NCBI RefSeq assembly: GCF_006345805.1
Contig: NC_043005.1
Location: 40,920,001 to 40,984,000, forward strand
Direction of reading: 5' to 3'
Origin: Octopus sinensis
Taxonomy: Eukaryota
Length of the DNA stretch: 64,000 bases
This document shows, piece after piece, positions 5,669 to 58,740 of the stretch. The notes beneath the pieces are model-generated. The model ran no database searches, was not told the origin of the DNA, and was given only the letters and a program-made list of their open reading frames with translations. The translations under genes and the position numbers were made by a program. Within the stretch, counting starts at the first letter, position 1, and the number at the start of each line of letters is the position of its first letter.

Positions 5669-5990
<322 letters not shown>

Positions 5991-6580: not shown

Positions 6581-6583
<3 letters not shown>

Positions 6584-6810
6584 GAGAGTTCACGGAAAAA
6601 CAAAAGACGAAGACAGTGAGTGTATAAAACTAACAGGTGCATTAGTATAACGCTCAGGGATTGAAAAAGTCTTTTACGTTTCGAGCCTACGCTCTTCTAC
6701 AGAAAGAGACACAGAAAAAAACAAGGAGAGAAAAAAAAGCAAGTAAAAAAGGAGAGAAAAAAACAAAGAGAGAAACAAGGGCAGAAAAAAATGTGTGTAG
6801 TGGCTACCAA
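6581..6810 (-). mobile_element. PLE-type non-autonomous element (family H1) with hammerhead-like motif
   Basis: Homologous to 9279-9480 and 37965-38150; 3' end abuts (TA)n. Confidence 0.7.
6670..6707 (-). ncRNA. Variant minimal type-I hammerhead motif (core CUGUAGAA)
   Basis: Minus strand: TCTTT CTGTAGAA GAGC gtag GCTC GAAAC GTA AAAGA; stem I 5 bp, stem II 4 bp, palindromic stem III ACGU. Confidence 0.55.
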
Positions 6811-6814
6811 TCTA

Positions 6815-6902
6815 TCTGTTTGTTATGTTGTGTAAAATTTTCCATTTGTTGTGTTATTGTTAAATTTATATATATATTATACACAGATACATACATACAT
6901 AC

Positions 6903-6953
<51 letters not shown>

Positions 6954-7071
6954 TATATTTGTGTGTATGTATGTATGTATGTATGTATGTATGTATGTAT
7001 CTGTGTATATATATATATAAATTTAACAATAACACAACAAACGGAAAGTTTTACAAAACATAACAAACAGA
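6815..7071. repeat. Long inverted repeat centred on a (TA)n tract
   Basis: tctgtttgttatgttgtgtaaaattttcc...acacagatacatac is mirrored by gtatgtatctgtgt...caaaacataacaaacaga. Confidence 0.85.
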
Positions 7072-7410
7072 AAATTCGTAGCTTATTCATCGTCAGACAT
7101 CCAAAAGATCATTACAATTTCGTGCATTCAACGTTGATATTGTTCTTTTGGTGGCGCCTGTGGCAAAACACCACTGGAAGTAGCTAACAAATATACAGGA
7201 CAATGACAAGAACAAACACAACATAATGAAACACATATACAACAAAAAAAGCCATGCAACTGCAAGACAGACATGTGGTAATGTAAAGGAAAATGAAAGT
7301 GTCCTGTAGTACTGGAGTCAAGAACAGGACAGACAGAAAGTCAGAACAAAGAAAGAAGTAAAGTATTAGGGAGAGAACACACACACACATTTATATTTTC
7401 TTTTTTTTTT

Positions 7411-8122: not shown

Positions 8123-8155
8123 CTTTATTTAAAGCAGAAGAAAATTCAACAAAAC

Positions 8156-8193
8156 CTGTTACTCTGAGTTTCCCGTTGCCGTTCATCAGACAG
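8156..8193 (-). ncRNA. Minimal type-I hammerhead ribozyme (canonical core)
   Basis: CTGT CTGATGA a CG gcaa CG g GAAAC TC a GA GTA ACAG: stem I CUGU/ACAG, GNRA-capped 2-bp stem II, stem III ACUC/GAGU, GUA cleavage triplet. Confidence 0.75.
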
Positions 8194-8209
8194 TTTTTGC
8201 TAGCAAAAA

Positions 8210-8247
8210 CTGTCCGATGAACGGCAACGGGAAACTCAGAGTAACAG
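8210..8247 (+). ncRNA. Minimal type-I hammerhead ribozyme (U4C core CCGAUGA)
   Basis: Mirror copy of 8156-8193 with CCGATGA core. Confidence 0.7.
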
Positions 8248-8572
8248 GTTTTGTTGAATTTTCTGCTGCTTTAAATAAAGCTTATTACTCTACCACTGGT
8301 ATTTGAGTACTCTTTTTTCCACCTTGTTTCACATTTATGTGTTTACTCCGGTATATATATATATATATATACATGTGTGTATTTTCTCTTGTTAACAATT
8401 AGCACGGAAAAAATATATAAGTAGTTACCAGGGTAGCAAAAAATACCACGAGTAAAAAAGTTGTAACTCCTTGTTTTTAAAGGTAGAAACTTCAGGTTTA
8501 CATGAAATATTTTGTATAATATATATAAATAAATAAATGGCGTTAAATGCAGGTGTTATTCAAATTCTTTTA

Positions 8573-8657
8573 CTTCTGACACATTTCAAAGATATCACTG
8601 GTATAATTCCATAGGAATGAAATGATGTAAAACAAAGTAATCTTCTCTTCAGGGAAG
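8573..8657 (-). ncRNA. Decayed hammerhead with long stem II (family H3 element, ~8375-8713)
   Basis: CTTCC CTGAAGA GAAGAT...ATCTTT GAAA TGTGTC AGAAG; GAAATGTGTC equals GAAACGCGTC after two CpG transitions. The element has internal inverted duplications (8533-8563 vs 8682-8713). Confidence 0.55.
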
Positions 8658-8760
8658 AGAAGATTACATTGTTTTATGCCATTTCAATAACACCTGCATT
8701 TAACTCCATTTATATATATATATATACATATAAATATATATATACATATACATACATACA

Positions 8761-9278: not shown

Positions 9279-9720
9279 ACGGGAAGCTTTATGAAAATAG
9301 ACAAAAGACGAAGGCAGGTGGAAAACAAACAAACAATTGTATTAGTATGGCGCTCAGGAAATATAAATAAAACAAGTCTTTAACGTTTCGAGCCTACGCT
9401 CTTCAACAGAAAGATACACAGAGAGAAAAAAAACACAGAAAGAAGGAGAGAAAAAAAATGCGTGCAGTAACTAACGAATCAACATGGCGATCTGATTTCG
9501 GCCAGAGGTCAAAGATCAAACGTGAGACGCGAGAGCGAAATAAGGGGAGATAATAGGGTTGATAATAGGGTTGAATGACCAGCTATTAAGGCGTAGGAGA
9601 GGTCTGGACGTGTGTATGTATAGGGTTGGTGTATGTATTAGTATGTATTAGTATGTATAAGGGTGTGTGTGTGTGTGTATGAGAGAGTATTAGTGCGTAG
9701 GATAGGTCTGGACAAGCTAC
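9279..9720 (-). mobile_element. Longer, CpG-rich copy of family H1 element
   Basis: Homologous to 6581-6810; 3' end abuts (TA)n. Confidence 0.7.
9377..9414 (-). ncRNA. Variant minimal hammerhead motif (core CUGUUGAA)
   Basis: TCTTT CTGTTGAA GAGC gtag GCTC GAAAC GTT AAAGA. Confidence 0.55.
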
Positions 9721-11055: not shown

Positions 11056-11780
11056 GTTAATAAAATAGAACATATGCATATATATAAACATATATGTACG
11101 TACCTACCTCTACATGTACATATACACGCATATATGTGTACAGGACACCAAAAAGACGTCGAACACATAGAGAGACGAAAAACATAGACACAAACCAAGG
11201 AACAAGACAAGCAAAAAAAGAGATACAGGACAATAAGCACAACGAAAAATCCCCTTCTTCAGTCGCTAAGGTTTCATCTACTAAACGTTTCGAAGGATAA
11301 AAGCGAGACGTATACTTCGAAGAAAACTTCCTTCCTGCGAAAAGCAAATCAATTAAAATTCTGAGATCTTTTCGCAGAGGGGTAAAAAAAGCAAGACGGT
11401 AACGACAGTACAAACATATAAACAGTAAAAAATATATATATAAACAGTGGAAAAATAAATATATAACAGTGAGAGACAGGACAAGGAGAACAAGATAAGA
11501 AGGGCTGTTAACGCCAGACGAAAAAAGTATTGCAAACGCTGGATTATAGTGGACGACGAGAGAGAAAGAATGTCGACCAGTAGCCTTAGAAGGCGGGCGA
11601 GAAAAGACAGGATAGCAGTTACGACGGAAGTATCGTCGCAGATGGACGACGGGAATGGGGGAGGAGGAGCAAGAGGAAGAGAGAGAAGAAGGGGAATGGT
11701 GCGAGGAGACCATGAAGAACGGTGAGGGGGAGAGAGAGAGGAAGAGACAAGTTAAGTGAGGGATAAAAGACGAAAAAGGG
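11056..11780 (-). mobile_element. Young CpG-rich non-coding element inserted in (TA)n
   Basis: Flanked by (TA)n; its 3' 220 bp recur at 5669-5890; contains hairpins and GAAACGT. Confidence 0.7.
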
Positions 11781-14773: not shown

Positions 14774-15578
14774 GGGTACAACTTTAGCTGAGAATGCAGT
14801 ATTCAAAGTTGAGACAAAAGATTCTTGATTGTGTTACTGGATCAAAGTTAGAATTACCAAAATCAAGCAAAAGAAGCAGAATATATTGTGTATATTCAGT
14901 TTGTAGATGTTGGAAAGAAAAACTGGCTGATGCTATTAGTGTCTGAGGTAACAAAGAATGCCTTTATAGACGTAACAAAGTTGAGTGTTTTCATATATTG
15001 GAAATTCTGCCAGCATTATGAAATATCAACAAAAAGAGGTGCTATAAACATGCACCAAAAAAGGATTTTAGAAAAAGACAAAGTTATCATAAACTGGAAT
15101 ATGACAAGACGCACGAGATGGAGAGAGTAAAGCTAATCAACTTGACATTGTTGTGAAGGATCACAACAATTCCAACAGATGATAAAGTATACCAAAAAGT
15201 AATGAAAAATATCTAAATATAAAGATGTGGAAATAGGGATTATCAAAATGTGGGGACTGAAATAGGGACAGTCCTAATAATATTGTCATGAGTATGATTA
15301 AAGTGATGAAGGAAATCCATAACCAAAACTCCACGATTAACACATTTATACAACACATAGAAAATGGTTCTGTTACGTTTGGCATACATATTTTTAGAGT
15401 ACTTTTGATACATTAGGAAAATAAAATAATATACATTCCCATGATACACAGCCATGTATTTAGTAATGCTGCAAAGCATGCAAATAAGAATAGTAATAAG
15501 AATAGTAGTACAGTTCTATATTTAAGAGATGAGAAATTATGTACATTATTTACATTATTTACATTATTTATATTCGAC

Positions 15579-15866
15579 GGGCATATGGCGTAGTGGTTAA
15601 GAGCGCTGGTTACTAACCCCAAGATTCTGAGTTTGATTCCAAGCAGTGACCTGAACAATAGCAATGATATTATTAATAATAATAATAATAATAATAATGA
15701 TGATGATAATAATAATATCGAAAAATACCTTAGGAATGAGAACTCAGGTTCGAAATTTTCTCAAGACACCTGTAGAAGGCTGGAGGGTATATCAGCTGAA
15801 ACGTGTTAACAACAAACAAGATGAGGACAAATATCCGTTGAATGTTAATAATGTAAATGATGTAAA
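15579..15866 (+). mobile_element. tRNA-headed SINE (family E) with hammerhead-like 3' region
   Basis: A-box TGGCGTAGTGG, B-box-like GAGTTTGATTCC, (AAT)n linker, then gacac CTGTAGA a GGCTG..CAGCT GAAACGT and a (TGTAAATAA)n-like tail; second copy at 30361-30647. Confidence 0.8.
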
Positions 15867-15877
15867 CAAAGAATAGT

Positions 15878-16095
15878 AGTGTTTTCAAATTTTGGCATAA
15901 GACCAGCAACTCTATGGGGAGGGAAATAATTGATTCGATCAACCTCAGTGCTTAACTGGTACTTATTTTATCAACCCCGAAAGGATGAAAGGCAAAGTTG
16001 ATCTTGGTAGAATTTGAACTCAGAATGTCAAGCCGGATGAAATGCTGATAAGCATTTCACCCAGTGTGCTAACGTTTCCGCCAGCTCACTGCCTT
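15878..16095 (-). mobile_element. tRNA-derived SINE (family B)
   Basis: Minus strand aggcagtgagctggcggaaacgttagcac...gagttcaaattc...gcctttcatcctttcggggttgataaaataagtaccag. Confidence 0.85.
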
Positions 16096-24680: not shown

Positions 24681-24942
24681 TTAAGTGCATATAAATTTAT
24701 ATATATATATAGGTGCAGGCATAGCTGTGTGGTAAGAAGCTTGCTTCCGAACCACATGGTTCTGGGTTCAGTCCCATTGAGTGGGACTTAGGTCAACCAA
24801 AGCTTTGTGAGTGGATTTGGTAGACAGAAGCTGAAAGAAGCCCAATGTGTATATATATATTAATAATAATAATATGACAACAAAAGAATAAATGAGGCCT
24901 CGATATTATGTAAATAGAGGAATTTATCTATAGTATCCTTAA

Positions 24943-25040
24943 ACAAGAATGTTGTTGACAGTGACTTTAAAGTTTCAGCCATTGTTGGATGATGGCTTAG
25001 CTGGTGAAAACTTCAAAGTCACTGTCAACAACATTCTTGT
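24943..25040. repeat. Inverted repeat (~33-bp arms)
   Basis: acaagaatgttgttgacagtgacttt vs aaagtcactgtcaacaacattcttgt. Confidence 0.8.
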
Positions 25041-25146
25041 ATAAGAATAATAAATTTGCACTCTACAAAAGTATGGAGTAACCTATCAGATTAATGTAAA
25101 ATTGTTTTTATTATAACTGAACATAAAAACAAACATTTATATATAA

Positions 25147-28479: not shown

Positions 28480-30360
28480 GCATATGTATATGCATGTGTA
28501 AGTATTGTATGTGTCTCTGTGTGTATGTGTATTTGTTTATGTTTGCATTTTCCAAAAATCACTCAGCTAAAGGCTGTGACATTGCTGTTATTTTCCCTAG
28601 CAACAAGTCAGCTACTGACTCTGTGCCTTTGAAGACTTCTGGAATAAGATACCTCTTACTTGTACAACAGGTAAATGGTTTGTAACAGGAAGGACATCCA
28701 GCCATAAAACAATCCCTTAATAATATAGTCTATATTTGTCTAAACCATGACAGCATGAGAAAATGGATGGAAATGTGAACAGATGAACTAATAAATTTGA
28801 GCAAGGTCCCCTATCAGAGGGTAATTTCTTCCCTTCATTCCACTAGTCTTGAAGGCCCTGCAGAAAATCACAGATGTTGCCCTTTCACATTTCAATAAAT
28901 CATTAAAAGAAAACAAAATAAAAAGAAAAGTCTATTGATTTCTTTTTGTGGCCGGTAGAGAGTTATTTGTGTTGTGATATTCACATCATTTTTTAATTAA
29001 ATATATTGAATCAACATTCAAAATCAGAGAATAATCTTAGCCTCTTGCATATCAGTACACTGTACTGTTTATCAGTTAACACAACTCTCTTTTGACCAGT
29101 TAGAAGGCTGATATTAGGGGCAATAGGTTATGAATGGTTAGACATTCTCACTTTCAATCTAACGTACATTTATATTATTGACATCACAAGGGTAAAAGAG
29201 CAAAGTCAAAACCCACTGGCATTTGAACTCCATAGGCAGAAAGAAAAGGCTAAAGAACATAATGTATTTAACCTAATACTCTTTCTCCCTCCTCTCTCTC
29301 TCTCTCTCTCGTTCTCTTTCTGTCTCTCTCTCTCTCTCTGTCTCACTGACTTTCTCCCCCACCTCTCTCTCTATATATATATTAACCTATACACACATAC
29401 TATTTTTACATTTTTATTATCATCAAATACAAACAGCAGCTTACAGATTAAGATTAAAGACTTCCATTAAAAGTCTTGAAGAGAAAATCCTAACTTACTT
29501 TCTGTCTCTCTCTTCCTCTCACTCACTCACTCACTCTATTTCAGTTTCTCTTGCTCATTCACTCTCTCACTCACTCTTACTCTTTGTCCCTCTGTCGCTG
29601 CCTGCCTGTCTGTCTGTCTTTGCTCTTATCTCTTTTTTTTCTACCAACCTACTTCCCACTTCCCTCTTCCTCACTGTCCACTTCTAGCACAGAATCGAGG
29701 GCATTGATAACTCCGCCCTCACTCAACTCTTATCCACCTCCCAGGAATATTTGGAACTATTTCTTTGTTGGACTTGCTATAGAAGTACAAAAAGCAAGAA
29801 ATGTCAAAAGCTGACACAGTCCACTTGTAGAAAGGCCAATAGATATAGTTACAGTCGCTTAGGGGATGTAAGCTGATAACTCTCTTCCTGAAGTGGCTTT
29901 ACAGTAATGAAAAGATACACACCATACTATGGCATTTCTCGAGTAAAAGTTTAATGGCATATTTTGTATGGAAGGTCAAAGTGTAATGATTTAATGCTAC
30001 ACAGGTTACATTTTTGTGAAAGTAATCAAATAAAAGATATAACGTTTTATAGCATTTCATAGGCTTTTTGATGCACGTTTTGTTTGGCAGATCAAAGTAT
30101 AATAATGATACCAAGTTTTATGATGGCAGGTCTTTTGGCTATTTTATAAAACACATTCTGCTATCCATCTGCTACCCATGATGGCTGATAGCCAAGACTG
30201 ACAGAGTGCCATACCAAATAATTTTATATTATTCAGTTTTATCTTCCCAGTTGTGAGTTGATTTTTGCTTTACTTTCTTACTTTCTTATATTTCATTACG
30301 TACCTCATTTCTTTGGGTTTCATAAGACATGTCCTAACAATCTAAGAAAATAAGTTTGAT

Positions 30361-30706
30361 TACATTATTTACATTATTTACATCATTTACATTATTTACA
30401 ATTGCCGGATATTTGTCCTCATCTTGTTTGTTGTTAACACAATGTTTCAGCTGATATGCTCTCCAAGCATTCATCAGGTGTCTTGGGGAAATTTTGAACC
30501 TGGGTTCTCATTCGTAAGGTATTTTTTGATGTTATTATTATTATTATTATTATTATAATAATTATTATTATTAAGGTCACTGCCTGGAATCGAACTCAGA
30601 ATCTTGGGGTTAGTAGCCTGCACTCTTAACCACTACACCATATGCCCACGGGCATATGGCATAGTGGTTAAGAACGTGGGCTACTAAACCCCAAGAATCC
30701 AAGTTT
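30361..30706 (-). mobile_element. SINE family E (tRNA head plus hammerhead) with inverted duplication of the head
   Basis: Minus 30647-30361: gggcatatggtgtagtggttaagag...gagttcgattccaggcagtgacc-(AAT)n-...gacacctgatga...; plus 30650-30706 is an inverted partial copy of the head. Confidence 0.8.
30436..30482 (-). ncRNA. Minimal type-I hammerhead motif in SINE family E
   Basis: GACAC CTGATGA atgcttggagagcatatcagct GAAAC AT T GTGTT; stem I GACAC/GUGUU; GAAACAT is consistent with CpG decay of the GAAACGT seen in the 15798 copy. Confidence 0.6.
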
Positions 30707-32068: not shown

Positions 32069-34469
32069 TAACATAAGATTACAGGGACATGTCAAAAGTA
32101 AATACTATCTTTCTGTTCTTACCACTAGCTTAAAGTTGCACAGAGGAAAACTTAACATGGCCTCTACTAATCAACAAAGAGCATTTGAGAGTCTAACATA
32201 TTCAGGGATAGTCCTGGGTATGACTTTGATTTGCATCCAGTTGTGGAGATCCTGGTATGGGAGTTCCAGGGTTTTGAGGGGCATAAAACTTCCTCTTAGC
32301 CACTATTGTCCCCAACTCAGAGTTGTAGCACCTATCAGGGTCCCAGTTACAGGTTACTTAGCATGTCAAGGAACTGCCTTCAGAAGAAGGCCATTTACAA
32401 ATGCCCCAACATACCCAAGGCATTTGAAGCTCTTCACTTTAGCTGCTTATCTTAGAGGAAGTAACTTCATTCAAAACCTGCATCCTGATAACTATTGGGC
32501 TTGTAGCACTTGTTGCACTAGACCAATATAAGTTTGAAAGATGAAGGAGAGGGCCTGGCTTTGCACAAACTGTGCTCACTGTAATAATAAACCCCTGCTG
32601 CTTTGTTGGATAATCTACAGAGCATTTAAATAAGGCTAAGGGAGTAAATCCTTATAGAGAATTCAGAGTGTGGTTCCTAAGGCAGATATGTATGGTTATA
32701 CTTAATGAATGTCTGGTTTCCTTGCAGCACCATGGACACTGTGAACATATTAACATGCCTTTCCATTGTGATGTATCAACAAGTGAAGAGATGATAAATG
32801 TACTTGAGGCTAGGCACTTGCTTTTGGAAACAGCCCAGGCACAACAGAAATGGTTAAGCTATTGTCTCTGCAATACTGATGACCAATGATGGAAAGGTTG
32901 ACCATACTCAGGGATATTGGATATGATCTACATAAACAGTATAATGTAATACATACTCAATGTAATCAACATTCAATAACGCTTACTTCCACAATTACTT
33001 GTTGGGAAGGACACAGCATTTCATTTTGCAACCATAATGTACTACCAAGTATATTAAAGGTTTATAAATCAACATTGTGTTTTACCTTTTTGCGTTAGCA
33101 GTGTGATTCAATCACTTTCTAGGGGGAGGGGGAGGAAGAGGAGAAGAGGGAGGAGGAGGAGAGGGAGTCTATAGAAATTAGTAACTACATTCATCTCTTA
33201 TAGAGATTTTTTAAGTAGCTGCTTTGCTTGCTGCAAGATCAGTGACTGGTTATCACTTATTTTTCTATATATTGTGAGCTGGAGTGGATTACTGCTATTT
33301 CTAGTGAATGGGTGTCCACCACCGAGGATGAGTAAAGATAGCTTGAAACTGTATGGTCTTGTGGTCCTGTTGTCTGCAGGAAGATGGTAGGAGTTTACTC
33401 CCCTGCTTGCAATATATATCAGGTACAGATTGCATTAATAACCAACTGGAGGTTTCTCCTGGGGTTAAAAATGGTAGTAACATCAGTTCCTATGGGATAG
33501 CCATATTGAAGTGGTGATAAACATTACTTCTACAGAAATTCTACAGACCTTAGATCCAACACTGTATTTGTATTCATATTTGTATACAAAACATCGTAAC
33601 TTTCAGTGTGGATCTAAATTCTATAGAATATCTGTAGAGATAACTTTAAAATGACTTACTTTTACATAATTGATACTTGAAACACCAACCACACAATTCA
33701 CATAACTCACATTCTACACCAAGAGTCAGCACACTAACATAGCTAGAGTGTGTACCACCTGGGGCAACCCTTCCATTTGCTGCCTCTGGTCCCCACAAAA
33801 AACACGTATTGCCTACAAGAGACCCAAAAGTGCCGCCCCTACCACCCCCATATAGCTATCCTAGTGGGTCAGCAACAGGTGGCACAGCCCTCAAGAAGGC
33901 CATTCAAGTGTTCTCTGTTGATGCTTGGAGATACTGCAAAAAATTTTCAAATTTAATGTATTTGTGGGCCATTTTAACCATTGATGACTTTTAGGTAGTA
34001 TTTTGTGTCACAACTTTTACTTATCTAAGCACTGCAAGGAATGGAAACTGGTATAAGACATTGATATTTATGTATGTGAGATACAGAGTAATGTGCATGT
34101 AGGCCATGGGCAAATGTAAAATGAGGAAAAATGTAAGCCACTGCAAAAAGAAGTTGCTGATCTTTATTCTACCCATGCAACACTTTCATTTCATACTGTA
34201 CATCTGTGTTTCCAAACTTCAGAACTAATTTTCATTTCATGGAATGCTGGAAATTCAGGTTAAATTTCATGTGTCTTTGAATAACACTATGGATGATTTA
34301 TGGAGGGTTGCTGGCCAGTTTGACTTGTCACCAGAATGGGTGCTGGTCTAACAGATTCTCTTATCACTGCTTGCCAAAATTATCTTCTAATGCTAAAACA
34401 TATAATAACCACTCAGATGGCGCATACAAAATGTGAAGTCAACTCAACAAAATAAGAATTCACATTACA

Positions 34470-37511: not shown

Positions 37512-37850
37512 AAGGAAAACAGCAAATGGAGATACAATTAATGGAAAACAGTTGATTTACATCAATTATAATTTATTAATTAATTACAAAAAGACATAAT
37601 CTCAACTTACAGTGGTTTCAGTTGGCATGATTCTCAGTTCTAACTGCCACAATAAGTGATTCAATTTGGTATAACTAATTACCTACAATGATAACTATCA
37701 CTACTATTATTGTGGTGGTTAGAACTGAGAATCATGTTAACTGAAACAGCTGTAAGTTGAGATTCCGTCTTTTTGTAATCAATTGATAAATGATAATTGA
37801 TGTAAATCGATTGTTATCCATTAATTGTATCTACATTTTCTGTTTTCCTT
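37512..37850. repeat. Long inverted repeat (~143-bp arms, ~50-bp spacer)
   Basis: aaggaaaacagcaaatggagatacaattaatgg...gttctaactgccacaataa is mirrored at 37706-37850; contains GAAACAGCTGTA. Confidence 0.85.
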
Positions 37851-37964: not shown

Positions 37965-38150
37965 ATCCATCACTAGCCACTACACATTCTTTATTTTCTC
38001 TCCTTGTTTCTTTCTGCATTCCTTTCTGTGGAAGAGCGTAGGCTCGAAACATTAAAGACTTTTTCACTTCCTGAGCATTATACTAATACATCTGTTTGTT
38101 GTCTACACCACCTGTCTTTGTCTTTTGTTTTTTTGTGAATTCTCCCCTAT
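37965..38150 (+). mobile_element. Family H1 element with hammerhead-like motif at 38022-38057 (core CUGUGGAA)
   Basis: CTTT CTGTGGAA GAGC gtag GCTC GAAAC ATT AAAG; reverse complement of 6581-6810; ends at (CA)n. Confidence 0.7.
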
Positions 38151-47019: not shown

Positions 47020-47198
47020 ATAAGTAAGGAAAAATTTTTAAAAATGCAGAATGCTCAAATGAAAGAAAATTTAATAAAATGAATAAAATGATAAAATATA
47101 TAATATATTTATATATATATATTTTATCATTTTCTCATTTTATAAAATTTTCTTTCATTTGAGCATTCTGCATTTTAAAAAAATTTTTCCTTACTTAT
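47020..47198. repeat. AT-rich palindrome centred on a TA-rich spacer
   Basis: ataagtaaggaaaaatttttaaaaatgcagaatgctcaaatgaaag vs ctttcatttgagcattctgcattttaaaaaaatttttccttacttat. Confidence 0.85.
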
Positions 47199-48172: not shown

Positions 48173-48473
48173 TTTTACCTGTTCATAATAATTACTCCAC
48201 ACTATGTTTATATTCTATATTTAAATCAAACTGGAGTCTGATGCAGCTCTCCAGCTTGCCAACTCTGGTCAGACCATCCAACCCATGCCAGCATGGACAA
48301 CAGATGTTAAATGATAATGATGATGATGATGATGATGAAATTAAATGTTCTTTAAGTGATGCCAAATGTTTTACTTTTCCATTTTCTATTTTAATCTCTT
48401 TCTCTGTTTTCTCTCTCTTTTTCTCTGTCTTCTCTCTCTCCTCTCCCTCTCTTCTCTCTCTCTCACTGTTCAA

Positions 48474-49780
48474 TATTTATCAGCTATTGGCTGAAATTCA
48501 CACTGACATTCAGGCAACACTAAGCTGGCAAGGTCCTCATTTAATCTATTTAAGATAACCCTTCCAAAGATCTTCCCAGCAATACACAAAAGGGAGGTAC
48601 CTCTTTGGTTGTCAGATTCACGTTTGTTACCTTTGTGCTTATTAAGATGGAAAATAGAAGCATCTTTGAACTCCTGTGGGACTGATCCTGATTCACATAA
48701 CTTGTTCAGCAGGAGACTGCTACCACATTTATATATCTCGCCTGGTATGTCATCGTTCCCAGATGACTTACCATTCGTGAGCTGTTTCATGGCCTTTTTT
48801 TATTTCAGCATTTGATGGAGTAACTGACAGTTCTTCAGGGACAGCCTTTGTGGTAGGTTGATGATCAGTTCTTCATCAACAATTGAGTCCATATTCAGAA
48901 CATTTGAAAAGTGCTCTGCCCAGCACTTTGTGATCTCCTTTTTATGTCAGAAGATTACTCTCAGTTGAAAGTATGGGAGTTGAGCCACCAGGCACAGGTC
49001 CAAAAACACCCTTTAAATTCTGGTAGAATGGCCTGGAGTTACATCTGTTGGCAGCATCTTGCAATTCTTGTGTCTTCCTTTCCCACCATATCTGTTTCAT
49101 TTACCTCAGTTGAGATTGACATGTATTTCTAGCCTTTTTAAACTCATTGTATTTTGTGGTATTATTTCTATTTGACATCCATTGAGAGAGGCTCTCTTCT
49201 GCATATTGTCCAAAAGAGGATAGATATTTGGATCATTTGAGTCAAACCAATCTTGGTGCTTCCTTTTAACATATCCAAATGTTTTGCAAGATGACTCAAA
49301 TACAGCATTTTTAAAAGCAGAAACCATTGATTCCAAATCTGTGTTGTCTGAGATGCTAGCAAGTTTGTTGTCACAGGTTATTTGAAATTAAGTAAATTGT
49401 CATTGTTTCTCAGCTTTGTCAGATCCACTTTTCGTATTGGTTGAGTGAAATTCACCTTTGATCATATCAGTCTATGGTCAGACCAGCACAACCCAATGGA
49501 GAAAGCTCGTGCTGCTTGGACATCTTCCCTTATGGAAGACTCCACAATTATGTAATCAATGAGGTGATAATGGTTTGATCAGGGATGCTTCCAGATAGTT
49601 TTGTGGTGGTTGGGGAGTTGGAAAATAGTTTTGGTAATCAACAGTCCATATCCACTGCAAAGTGATAGCAGCAGATGACCATTTGAGTCTGCCTTGTCAA
49701 CCCCATGCTTCCCTATTATGTCATCCAATATGGATGTACCACAACCTACACGTGCATTGAAATCACCAAGGAGGAGAAAT
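48474..49780 (-). mobile_element. Decayed RTE-clade LINE (APE domain to start of RT)
   Basis: Minus frames: LLLGDFNARVG...GKHGVDKADSNGHLLL...HLIDYII (AP endonuclease); KRKHQDWFDSND; KSSGNDDIPGEIYK...VPQEFKDASI..KGNK..GTSLLCIAGKIFGRVILNRL (RT N-terminus); multiple stops and frameshifts. Confidence 0.88.
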
Positions 49781-49870
49781 CTATATATAAATATTTGTAT
49801 ATAAATACAAAAAAAATAAAACGAAGTGAAATATATGAGATTTAAGAATATAAATAAGATATATAAAGCA

Positions 49871-49933
<63 letters not shown>

Positions 49934-50208
49934 ACAACACATTTTGTTCAATGACCGTTGACTATTTATGAGTTCATCTGCCCTTTGACAGGTTTTGCTT
50001 TTTGTCCTGCAGAATGCCCAACAAACACCCTCCTCACCAAGCAAGCTCAGTGGGGTTGCCAGTTTAGTTGCCAATGACCTGACCATTTTACATATTGTAC
50101 TGGGTTACATGTTACCAGTAGTGCTCATTTATATATATATATATGTATATATATGTATATGTGTGTATGTATATATATATATATATATATACATACACAC
50201 AAACATGC

Positions 50209-56744: not shown

Positions 56745-57283
56745 ATAATAGAAATATTAAAATTACTAAGTCTCTCTAAAAGAGAACAGCAGCAGCGTTC
56801 CCGGAAAATAATAGTTATCGCCATACTAATATGGCATTCTTATAAAAATGGAGCTAATAAGCGGACAGCTTTATTCTTATTTTTATAAGAATGCCATATT
56901 AGTATGGCGATAACTATTATTTTCCGGGAACGCTGCCGCTGTTCTCTTTTAGAGAGACTTAGTAATTTTAATATTTCTATTATTGAAAACAAGTGGATGT
57001 ATTCCACCGAAACTAGGTAAATAAAACCATCGAACAGAGATTGTCGGAAGCGACACCTACTGGCTGGCTACGCTGCATTGAAAAGGGGCAATACCCCGAA
57101 ACGCGTCTGTAGCTGCCGGTCAAGTAGTGTGGAGCGACTGACCTCCCTTGTTCGAAGGTTATATGGATACAGTTTGTGTATCAAATAGCTAACTTAAGGC
57201 GATGGCCTCATGGAGCTAATAAGCGGACAGCTTTATTCTTATTTTTATAAGAATGCCATATTAGTATGGCGATAACTATTATT
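56745..57283 (+). mobile_element. Retrozyme-like / non-autonomous PLE-type element (family H7) inserted in (TA)n
   Basis: 74-bp direct repeats at 56848-56921 and 57210-57283 (period 362); 105-bp inverted copy at 56745-56849 of 56879-56983; hammerhead inside; TA-rich flanks. Confidence 0.8.
57072..57113 (+). ncRNA. Minimal type-I hammerhead ribozyme with U3-A8 core variant
   Basis: GCTGCA TTGAAAA GGGG caata CCCC GAAAC GC GTC TGTAGC: 6-bp stem I (one GU), 4-bp stem II, palindromic ACGCGU stem III, GUC triplet. Confidence 0.8.
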
Positions 57284-57670
57284 ATTATATATATATAATA
57301 TATATATATATAATATATATATATAATCAGTCAGTTTTTCTTAAGCCCAAATTAAAAGCACACTCTAAAAATTTCTTTTAGCACTAATATTTTTCTGTAG
57401 TTGTTGGTTATGGTTGGTCAGAAAGTTGTTATTAATTTCACTAGAAATAATGGATATGAAACTAATGGTATCTTTCTGACTAGCTATATCCAGCAACTAC
57501 ATAAAATACGTACACATACATACCATGCAAGCATGCATGCATACATACATACATACATACATACATACATACATACATACATACATACATACATACATAC
57601 ATGCACATATACACACATACATACATACATACATACATACATACATACATACATACATGCACATATACAC

Positions 57671-58029: not shown

Positions 58030-58740
58030 GTTGGCCCATTTGGTGCATGAGGGAGCTTGTGTCTGATGTCCTTGCTTGTAAATCATGCTGGGCCATCAGT
58101 TCATTTTGTATTGTGGAGAGGAGAATGTCTAGTTCCTTTTCGAAGATATCTACATTCACATTAATTTTTGTGGCAGGGCATTGATAAGCTGTGGGCCTTT
58201 GAACCCTAAGCTATTGCAGTATCTGGTCCTGAGTTTTGATAAAATAGATGATACCTTTGATACAATACAAAGGTAACCAGTTCTGGCATTTGTATAACAC
58301 TCAATACCAAAATTAGGTACCAGCCCTTTCAAAATTTTCCATGTGTAAATTATTACATATTTATACCTTTGATACAATACAAAGGTAACCAGTTCTGGCA
58401 TTTGTATAACACTCAATACCAAAATTAGGTACCAGCCCTTTCAAAATTTTCCATGTGTAAATTATTACATATTTATACCTTTGATACAATACAAAGGTAA
58501 CCAGTTCTGGCATTTGTATAACACTCAATACCAAAATTAGGTACCAGCCCTTTCAAAATTTTCCATATGTTAATTATTACATATCTGTCACGCCTTTACT
58601 CCAAGGAGTAATGTAGTTTTTCCAGCCTCTCCCTGTAGCTCATCTGCTGTACTATTACAATCATTTTAGCATAGTGATGTTGGAATGCTTCAAGCTCTGC
58701 TTTTAGTTTGACACTACGTGGTGACCATAACTGAGAGCAG
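58030..58740 (-). mobile_element. CR1-clade LINE 3' fragment with a triplicated 112-bp segment
   Basis: Translates MSYRERLEKLHYSLE*RRDRY...WKILKG and RYCNSLGFKGPQLINALP (CR1 C-terminus); tandem units start at 58251, 58363 and 58475. Confidence 0.8.

Follow-up and report, generated by a model that had tools for sequence, protein, structure and literature searches.

The inverted tRNA-like head found beside a hammerhead-bearing, SINE-like repeat of the octopus genome is most likely a scar left when a SINE-like element was integrated in the manner of a PLE; as an inversion it is ordinary, as a test system useful. The repeat concerned (copy 2 of its family in the window, the whole 64-kb stretch analysed here) is probably a decayed copy made by a Penelope-like (PLE) reverse transcriptase, its inverted head having arisen in that same integration. 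Below we describe the family, the two 5′ junctions and their frequency relative to other SINE-like repeats, and weigh the mechanisms that could have produced them.

A dispersed SINE-like family

The window is AT-rich (GC 0.30–0.43), consists to about 15% of simple repeat and holds many interspersed repeats. The hammerhead-SINE family is represented in these 64 kb by two dispersed monomers of about 290 nt, both non-coding, which share 80.8% identity over 318 columns (Table 1); only three head segments of the family occur. In both main copies the A-box lies at positions 8–18 and the B-box at positions 53–62 of the head, with tRNA spacing, and the B-box that the initial annotation had assigned to copy 2 is indeed retained. 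No T4 run lies within copy 2, and its architecture is at most compatible with Pol III transcription.

Table 1. Features of the two family copies (positions of the window)
Feature	Positions	Strand	Remarks
Copy 1, left target-site duplication	15498–15509	plus	12 bp
Copy 1, inverted 3′ piece (71 nt)	15510–15580	minus	9-nt repeats and ~30-nt unique extension
Copy 1, main body	15579–15868	plus	tRNA-like head, (AAT)n linker, hammerhead-like motif, 9-nt repeats, no tail
Copy 1, right target-site duplication	15869–15880	plus	12 bp
Copy 2, candidate left target-site duplication	30352–30357	plus	6 bp exact; 8/9 with one gap; weak
Copy 2	30360–30647	minus	order: tRNA-like head, (AAT)n linker, hammerhead-like motif, 9-nt repeats
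Copy 2, 3′ end	30360–30399	minus	about 4 units of the 9-nt repeat
Copy 2, minimal type I hammerhead-like motif	30436–30482	minus	stem I, core, bulged A, stem II, GAAA
Copy 2, (AAT)n linker from head to body	30530–30573	minus	assigned on sequence
Copy 2, tRNA-like head	30574–30647	minus	A-box 30640–30630, B-box 30595–30586
Copy 2, head-to-head spacer	30648–30649		2 nt
Copy 2, inverted partial head (positions 1–56), 56 nt	30650–30705	plus	A-box 30657–30667, no B-box
Copy 2, candidate right target-site duplication	30701–30706	plus	overlaps arm end, resembles B-box start

At gathering thresholds, Rfam gave no match in the whole window, and E-value scans of both copies, run to an E-value of 10, returned no hammerhead or tRNA family. 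These scans yielded seven and one weak matches for the two copies, the best being to generic miRNA-hairpin models that lie far under their cut-offs; we regard them as hairpin look-alikes and reject a miRNA gene. A functional tRNA is likewise rejected, as ARAGORN predicted none and no Rfam tRNA match was obtained. Neither copy contains an ORF with reverse transcriptase (RT) and GIY-YIG domains or a terminal direct repeat (pLTR), which excludes an autonomous PLE, and head-to-tail tandem units are absent from both, which excludes a tandem retrozyme. By analogy, the family may work like a non-autonomous PLE, of which it would be a putative member with no partner found: the 64-kb window yielded no autonomous PLE with the same 3′ end.

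Two exact-pattern scans of prokaryotic genome contigs (no further copies in either) and searches of plasmids and phages (no match) did not extend the family. Its antisense frame matched none of 8000 candidates and none of 1.84 billion representatives in protein sets, and its sense frame none of three candidates among longer proteins. A Pfam scan of 18 of the 125 listed open frames of the window gave a single sub-threshold match. Elsewhere in the window, degraded LINE-like fragments, which we take to be RTE-like, occupy 48470–49950, where one frame matches a protein with Pfam PF00078; a further LINE-like fragment contains about three near-identical tandem units of ~100 nt (58180–58584).

The hammerhead-like motif

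In copy 2, a stem I of 5 bp (30482–30478 with 30440–30436) encloses a CTGATGA box at 30477–30471 and a GAAA at 30448–30445, all on the minus strand. The canonical box noted in the initial annotation is therefore intact, whereas the hammerhead as a whole is broken: pair 10.1/11.1 is T.T and pair 15.2/16.2 is C.A, so the ribozyme is predicted to be inactive, and the minimum-energy fold is not a hammerhead. Copy 1 keeps both pairs, one as G.U, and has a stem II of up to 6 bp; its lesions are a core variant, CTGTAGA, and a 3-nt deletion at the cleavage site. Cleavage is thus predicted for neither copy, and their lesions differ. The T at core position 6 is also found in three copies of another family and may be a natural variant for that reason. 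These three copies (6582–6763, 9295–9457 and 37989–38146), which all carry this T, contain the best-scoring hammerhead-like motifs of the window, and their 3′ ends lie in microsatellites.

The bare pattern CTGATGA-N10–40-GAAA is not above chance, with four matches against 1.83 expected and four reached in 11 of 100 shuffles. The copy 2 motif scores 28, the third best in the window, and shuffled windows held a mean of 0.33 such matches (six shuffles). A strict hammerhead scan found copy 2 as its sole match in the window; a relaxed scan missed a motif at 8169–8189 because it allowed no longer helix III. Taken alone, the motif is modest evidence, and its support comes from stem I, stem II and the second copy. 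Minimal hammerheads with a short helix I, a bulged base and a long helix II mark PLEs (PMC4209133, cited here, like the other papers, from extracts), and the 5-bp stem I, bulged A and stem II of the octopus motif match that minimal form.

Two head-to-head junctions of different origin

The initial annotation described inverted segments at both 5′ junctions, taken from different parts of the element. This is borne out by the geometry of the two copies, which can be observed directly: the inverted piece derives from the 3′ end in copy 1 and from the head in copy 2.

The inverted partial tRNA head reported 2 bp from copy 2 is confirmed. Its arms, 30593–30647 and 30650–30705, are identical in 48 of 58 aligned columns (blastn E 1.6e-23) across the 2-nt spacer, and their hairpin reaches −71.4 kcal/mol (z −13.1), a stability equalled in 0 of 200 shuffles; the RNA fold of the whole element has no excess structure (z +0.5). 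The inverted arm stops at the start of the B-box and shows no B-box match. Having an A-box without a B-box, it is not a second full promoter, which rejects a bidirectional full Pol III promoter; of the tRNA-promoter duplication announced in the heading of the initial annotation, only the A-box part stands.

The arms differ at seven CpG-type positions, two others and one indel in 55, and the CpG changes run opposite ways, the sites of one arm having become TG and those of its partner CA. Since decay in opposite directions means that both arms decayed in the genome, fold-back during library preparation or assembly is excluded, as is an assembly artefact generally, given this strand symmetry and the 48/58 identity. 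The bodies of copies 1 and 2 differ by 10 non-CpG substitutions and three indels in 119; the arms of copy 2 are old, yet no older than the divergence between the two bodies, with counts too small to separate the dates. The locus, a decayed copy, has no evident function; if transcribed, it would give a 113-nt hairpin. For its candidate target-site duplication, an equal score arose by chance at 0.058 among 20,000 random flank pairs, and the likeness of the right-hand repeat to the B-box start possibly reflects microhomology. The ~30-nt tail of copy 1 is absent from the 3′ end of copy 2.

Copy 1 with its inverted piece spans 15510–15868 and is flanked by a 12-bp duplication with a chance probability of 0.0004. 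The inverted piece exceeds its tandem repeats and extends to this duplication. The ~30-nt extension occurs in neither main arm and is a single example with no second copy; its position inside the duplication makes it likely a PLE-type tail. At the junction the inverted piece and the head have 2 nt in common, or four should the two bases immediately before be part of the RNA. These two bases stand ahead of both the copy 1 head and the copy 2 arm (15577 aligns with 30648), an agreement expected about once in eight by chance. On the minus strand, 15569–15580 and 30636–30649 present the same 12 bases at both junctions, the reverse of the head plus these two bases, a weak hint that the RNA starts two bases before tRNA-like position 1.

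By analogy, copy 1, with its 5′ inverted piece and its one-sided tail, appears to follow the published PLE layout: PLEs carry an inverted 5′-truncated copy at the 5′ end and a 30–40-nt tail at a single end (extract of PMC8557442), and in a rotifer they form head-to-head junction palindromes with duplications of 8–10 bp (extract of PMC3846280).

Inversion frequency among SINE-like repeats

To score inversions, 120 nt of 5′ flank was inverted and aligned to each copy. For comparison, four other SINE-like families contributed 17, 7, 11 and 3 copies (38 in all), with ends set by hand; some copies were truncated and none was dropped. The two family copies gave scores of 62 and 40, the match starting at most 3 nt from the end, whereas no other SINE-like copy exceeded 25. 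At 400 random positions the median was 17 and the 95th percentile 27, and 11 positions reached 40 in a window that holds real palindromes. The inversion-rate comparison with other SINE families suggested in the initial annotation thus gives, within the window, 2/2 against 0/38 (Fisher p 0.0013), a result that is supportive rather than decisive because the family was noticed for its inversions. With the 12-bp duplication and the PLE literature, it supports, at n = 2, the earlier proposal of a PLE-like origin of the inversion during integration. In published data, 5′ inversion affects 1 of 5554 Alu insertions versus 30.9% of L1 (extract of PMC2912911).

Other palindromes and hammerhead-like repeats

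At an E-value of 1e-6 the window contains eight self-palindromes, one of which is copy 2; the other SINE families have none of them at their 5′ ends. Two further palindromes have a clear hammerhead-like motif. The first (8123–8280) is a young head-to-head palindrome (77/79, no spacer) whose arms begin at the same base; one arm is 72 nt longer (8123–8352), and both outer ends lie in (TA)n. This locus is the window's cleanest example of a PLE-type layout. The second (56748–56980) is an inverted 5′ piece (101/102, 29-nt spacer) with its motif at 57078 (about 57070–57115), within a young non-coding element of ~535 nt (56748–57283) that lies in (TA)n, has a terminal direct repeat of ~75 nt and is likely a miniature PLE. 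Two older palindromes, at 37512–37850 (128/144, 51-nt spacer) and 24931–25052 (41/45, 32-nt spacer), retain hammerhead-like remnants by eye. Palindromes in other hammerhead repeats point to a general trait of PLE-type inserts here, not of the tRNA head, in line with what was reported for a rotifer (extract of PMC3846280).

Inversion is not universal. At the same E-value of 1e-6, five hammerhead-like ends lack their own palindrome: the three high-scoring copies named above and, identified by eye, 5669–5891 and 11056–11330. Another repeat is represented by two 98% identical ends lying in (TA)n, at 5669–5891 and 11056–11780; near 11285–11325 (minus) the longer of them carries a GAAACGTT-type motif.

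The palindromes at 8618–8686, 33529–33638 and 57391–57506 are unassigned. The first is the short inverted arm (2–3-nt centre, internal deletion) of a repeat at 8373–8712 that ends in (TA)n; the arm resembles the head-derived type of copy 2, and no hammerhead was assigned. At 6582–6807 (minus), a hammerhead-family end adjoins 6803–6866 (plus) head-to-head, with about 4–5 common bases; the latter, the 64-nt end of a different family, stands tail-to-tail with 7020–7082 across an (AT)n tract. If 6582–6866 represents one event, two different RNAs would have been integrated together. An inverted pair (42/44) also spans a short AT tract at 47023–47195.

Proposed integration mechanism and alternatives

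Pol III transcription, PLE mobilisation and each enzymatic step are our reconstruction from the geometry of the two copies. We envision that the internal A- and B-boxes would direct a Pol III transcript of the element, whose hammerhead-and-tail 3′ part would be bound by a PLE protein that nicks both target strands, and that cDNA synthesis would start internally, close to the 9-nt repeats. For copy 2, this cDNA would extend to base 1 of the head, whereupon synthesis would turn, by snap-back or by joining to a second cDNA, and the arm would end after ~56 bases, at the point where the B-box start and the target end are alike. For copy 1, a further cDNA would be primed by the opposite target strand at the true 3′ tail and joined head-to-head to the first via 2–4 matching bases. 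Both arms of copy 2 would later have decayed, mainly at CpG sites. Copy 1 is accordingly best read as two cDNAs, one per target strand (tail start and internal start), joined by microhomology.

The available parts of the literature describe activities of this kind. In the anole, the PLE protein is a predicted dimer that cleaves each of the two strands, extends them, and starts reverse transcription at two internal sites with the tail between them (PMC11167929), and R2 proteins snap back after full-length cDNA synthesis (PMC11371274). The topology of copy 2 requires base 1 to be copied twice. The cDNA end alone forms no stable priming hairpin (0 kcal/mol), which argues against a simple annealed fold-back and, with the 2-nt spacer, makes an end-to-end junction with another cDNA, for which the B-box-like microhomology would have served as priming site, about as likely as snap-back; both routes yield an identical sequence at copy 2. 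More tentatively, and with somewhat less than even confidence, we suggest that a Pol III SINE parasitises the telomerase-related PLE RT rather than a LINE, both target strands priming cDNA on one or two RNAs that become joined head-to-head. Two such RNAs were possibly held together by a dimeric hammerhead.

Several observations stand against the PLE reading. The copy 2 arm ends inside the head, unlike the published PLE layout, in which it ends at the tail boundary; the copy 1 layout is equally that of LINE twin priming; the family numbers two copies in the window, in neither of which Rfam finds a hammerhead; and the 6-bp match at copy 2, with its chance probability of 0.058, could be decayed B-box sequence.

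That the arm stops at an arbitrary internal point with target microhomology would also be explained if the palindrome had been inherited, a read-through source locus being already head-to-head and copy 2 deriving from a transcript 5′-truncated 56 bases into the other arm. The two bases common to the copy 1 head and the copy 2 arm fit this account as well. We nonetheless consider it unlikely, because a Pol III start at the head cannot include upstream sequence and such an RNA would itself form the −71 kcal/mol hairpin. It also leaves copy 1 unexplained, whose inverted piece derives from the opposite end and terminates at the target duplication. In octopus assemblies, repeats of this kind with a palindromic head are presumably numerous; if so, a fixed junction or inherited master would be favoured.

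Long palindromes are unstable, and palindrome-driven deletions mostly take the centre. The former property would suit an event in which a PLE inserted two full-length copies head-to-head and most of one arm was later deleted, as would the weak duplication of copy 2 and the microhomology deletions that are common in PLE copies (extract of PMC3846280). This is distinctly unlikely, however, as the palindrome centre of copy 2 is intact, no remnant of body or tail lies right of 30706, and the 6-bp match falls exactly at both ends.

Short tandem tails are typical of CR1/L2 SINEs, and the window contains LINE-like RT fragments (the PF00078 match), so that a LINE of RTE, CR1 or L2 type could have mobilised the family via its 9-nt repeat end, with the inversions due to twin priming and the hammerhead a passenger. 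Copy 1 indeed combines the twin-priming topology with a 12-bp duplication (compare PMC2912911, extract). We judge this very unlikely: inversions are as rare as stated above in Alu and absent from the other SINE-like copies here, twin priming on one RNA cannot double base 1 as seen in copy 2, and the 9-nt repeats of copy 1 continue into the unique ~30-nt extension. Two independent insertions, later DNA repair (fold-back in replication) or a sequencing or assembly artefact are highly improbable, since base 1 of each head marks the junction (chance adjacency of order 1e-4 by rough arithmetic from three heads in 64 kb) and the arms, by their identity and strand-symmetric decay, are unlike an artefact, even though local inversions do occur, three of the eight self-palindromes being without assignment.

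Comparison with known systems

Head-to-head inversion as a PLE hallmark, non-autonomous PLE derivatives and schistosome hammerhead SINEs are already known. The apparent novelty is PLE-type inversion in a Pol III-type SINE whose non-redundant ends show the origin of each piece; in the literature covered, which lay outside Repbase, Dfam and subscription journals, we found no tRNA-headed SINE combining a minimal PLE hammerhead, a tail and PLE junctions.

Among non-LTR elements, L1 twin priming has the same topology as copy 1 and does not duplicate base 1 (extract of PMC2912911). R2 snap-back resembles copy 2 in topology; R2 primes at an internal cDNA position, whereas the spacer of copy 2 is 2 nt (extract of PMC11371274).

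The schistosome Sm-alpha and Sj-alpha repeats are likewise short and non-coding and combine a tRNA-related, Pol III-type promoter with a hammerhead (extracts of PMC2770079 and PMC6765202). They are often tandem with cleaving hammerheads, whereas in the octopus family the monomers are dispersed, their minimal motif is of PLE type and inverted pieces lie at their 5′ ends; compared by description, Sm-alpha is credited with no PLE partner and no 5′ inversion in the available parts of these two papers. Animal non-LTR retrozymes are also ~300 nt, non-coding and equipped with a type I hammerhead, they occur as monomers too, and they have been proposed to be non-autonomous PLE derivatives (PMC7229834; bioRxiv 10.64898/2026.07.22.740005; extracts). 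As described there, they form head-to-tail tandems giving circular RNA and have no tRNA head, in contrast to the octopus family with its tRNA-like head and lack of tandems.

The closest parallel is with endonuclease-bearing PLEs (Penelope/Poseidon, Neptune) and their derivatives, which share with the family a minimal type I hammerhead near the 3′ end (extracts of PMC3846280, PMC8557442, PMC11167929 and PMC4209133). PLEs and the SINE-like family alike place a head-to-head inverted piece at the 5′ junction in an AT-rich target, and copy 1 agrees with PLEs in its target duplication, roughly 10 bp long, and in its putative tail, which is confined to one end. Unlike PLEs, the family has no ORF and no pLTR and possesses a tRNA-type internal promoter. 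Were a PLE to mobilise a tRNA-headed SINE, the rule on SINE partners would reach beyond LINEs. The origin of tandem and inverted PLE structures is stated to be open in the available parts of PMC8557442, PMC3846280 and PMC11167929. Because the ends of the octopus family are non-redundant, its genomic copies would record the source end of each inverted piece and, if our reading is true, show whether self-priming or two cDNAs underlie PLE integration. In autonomous, terminally redundant PLEs the terminal repeat hides whether an inverted piece is of 5′ or 3′ origin; in copy 2 it is unambiguously the 5′ head, and the octopus family shows one of each.
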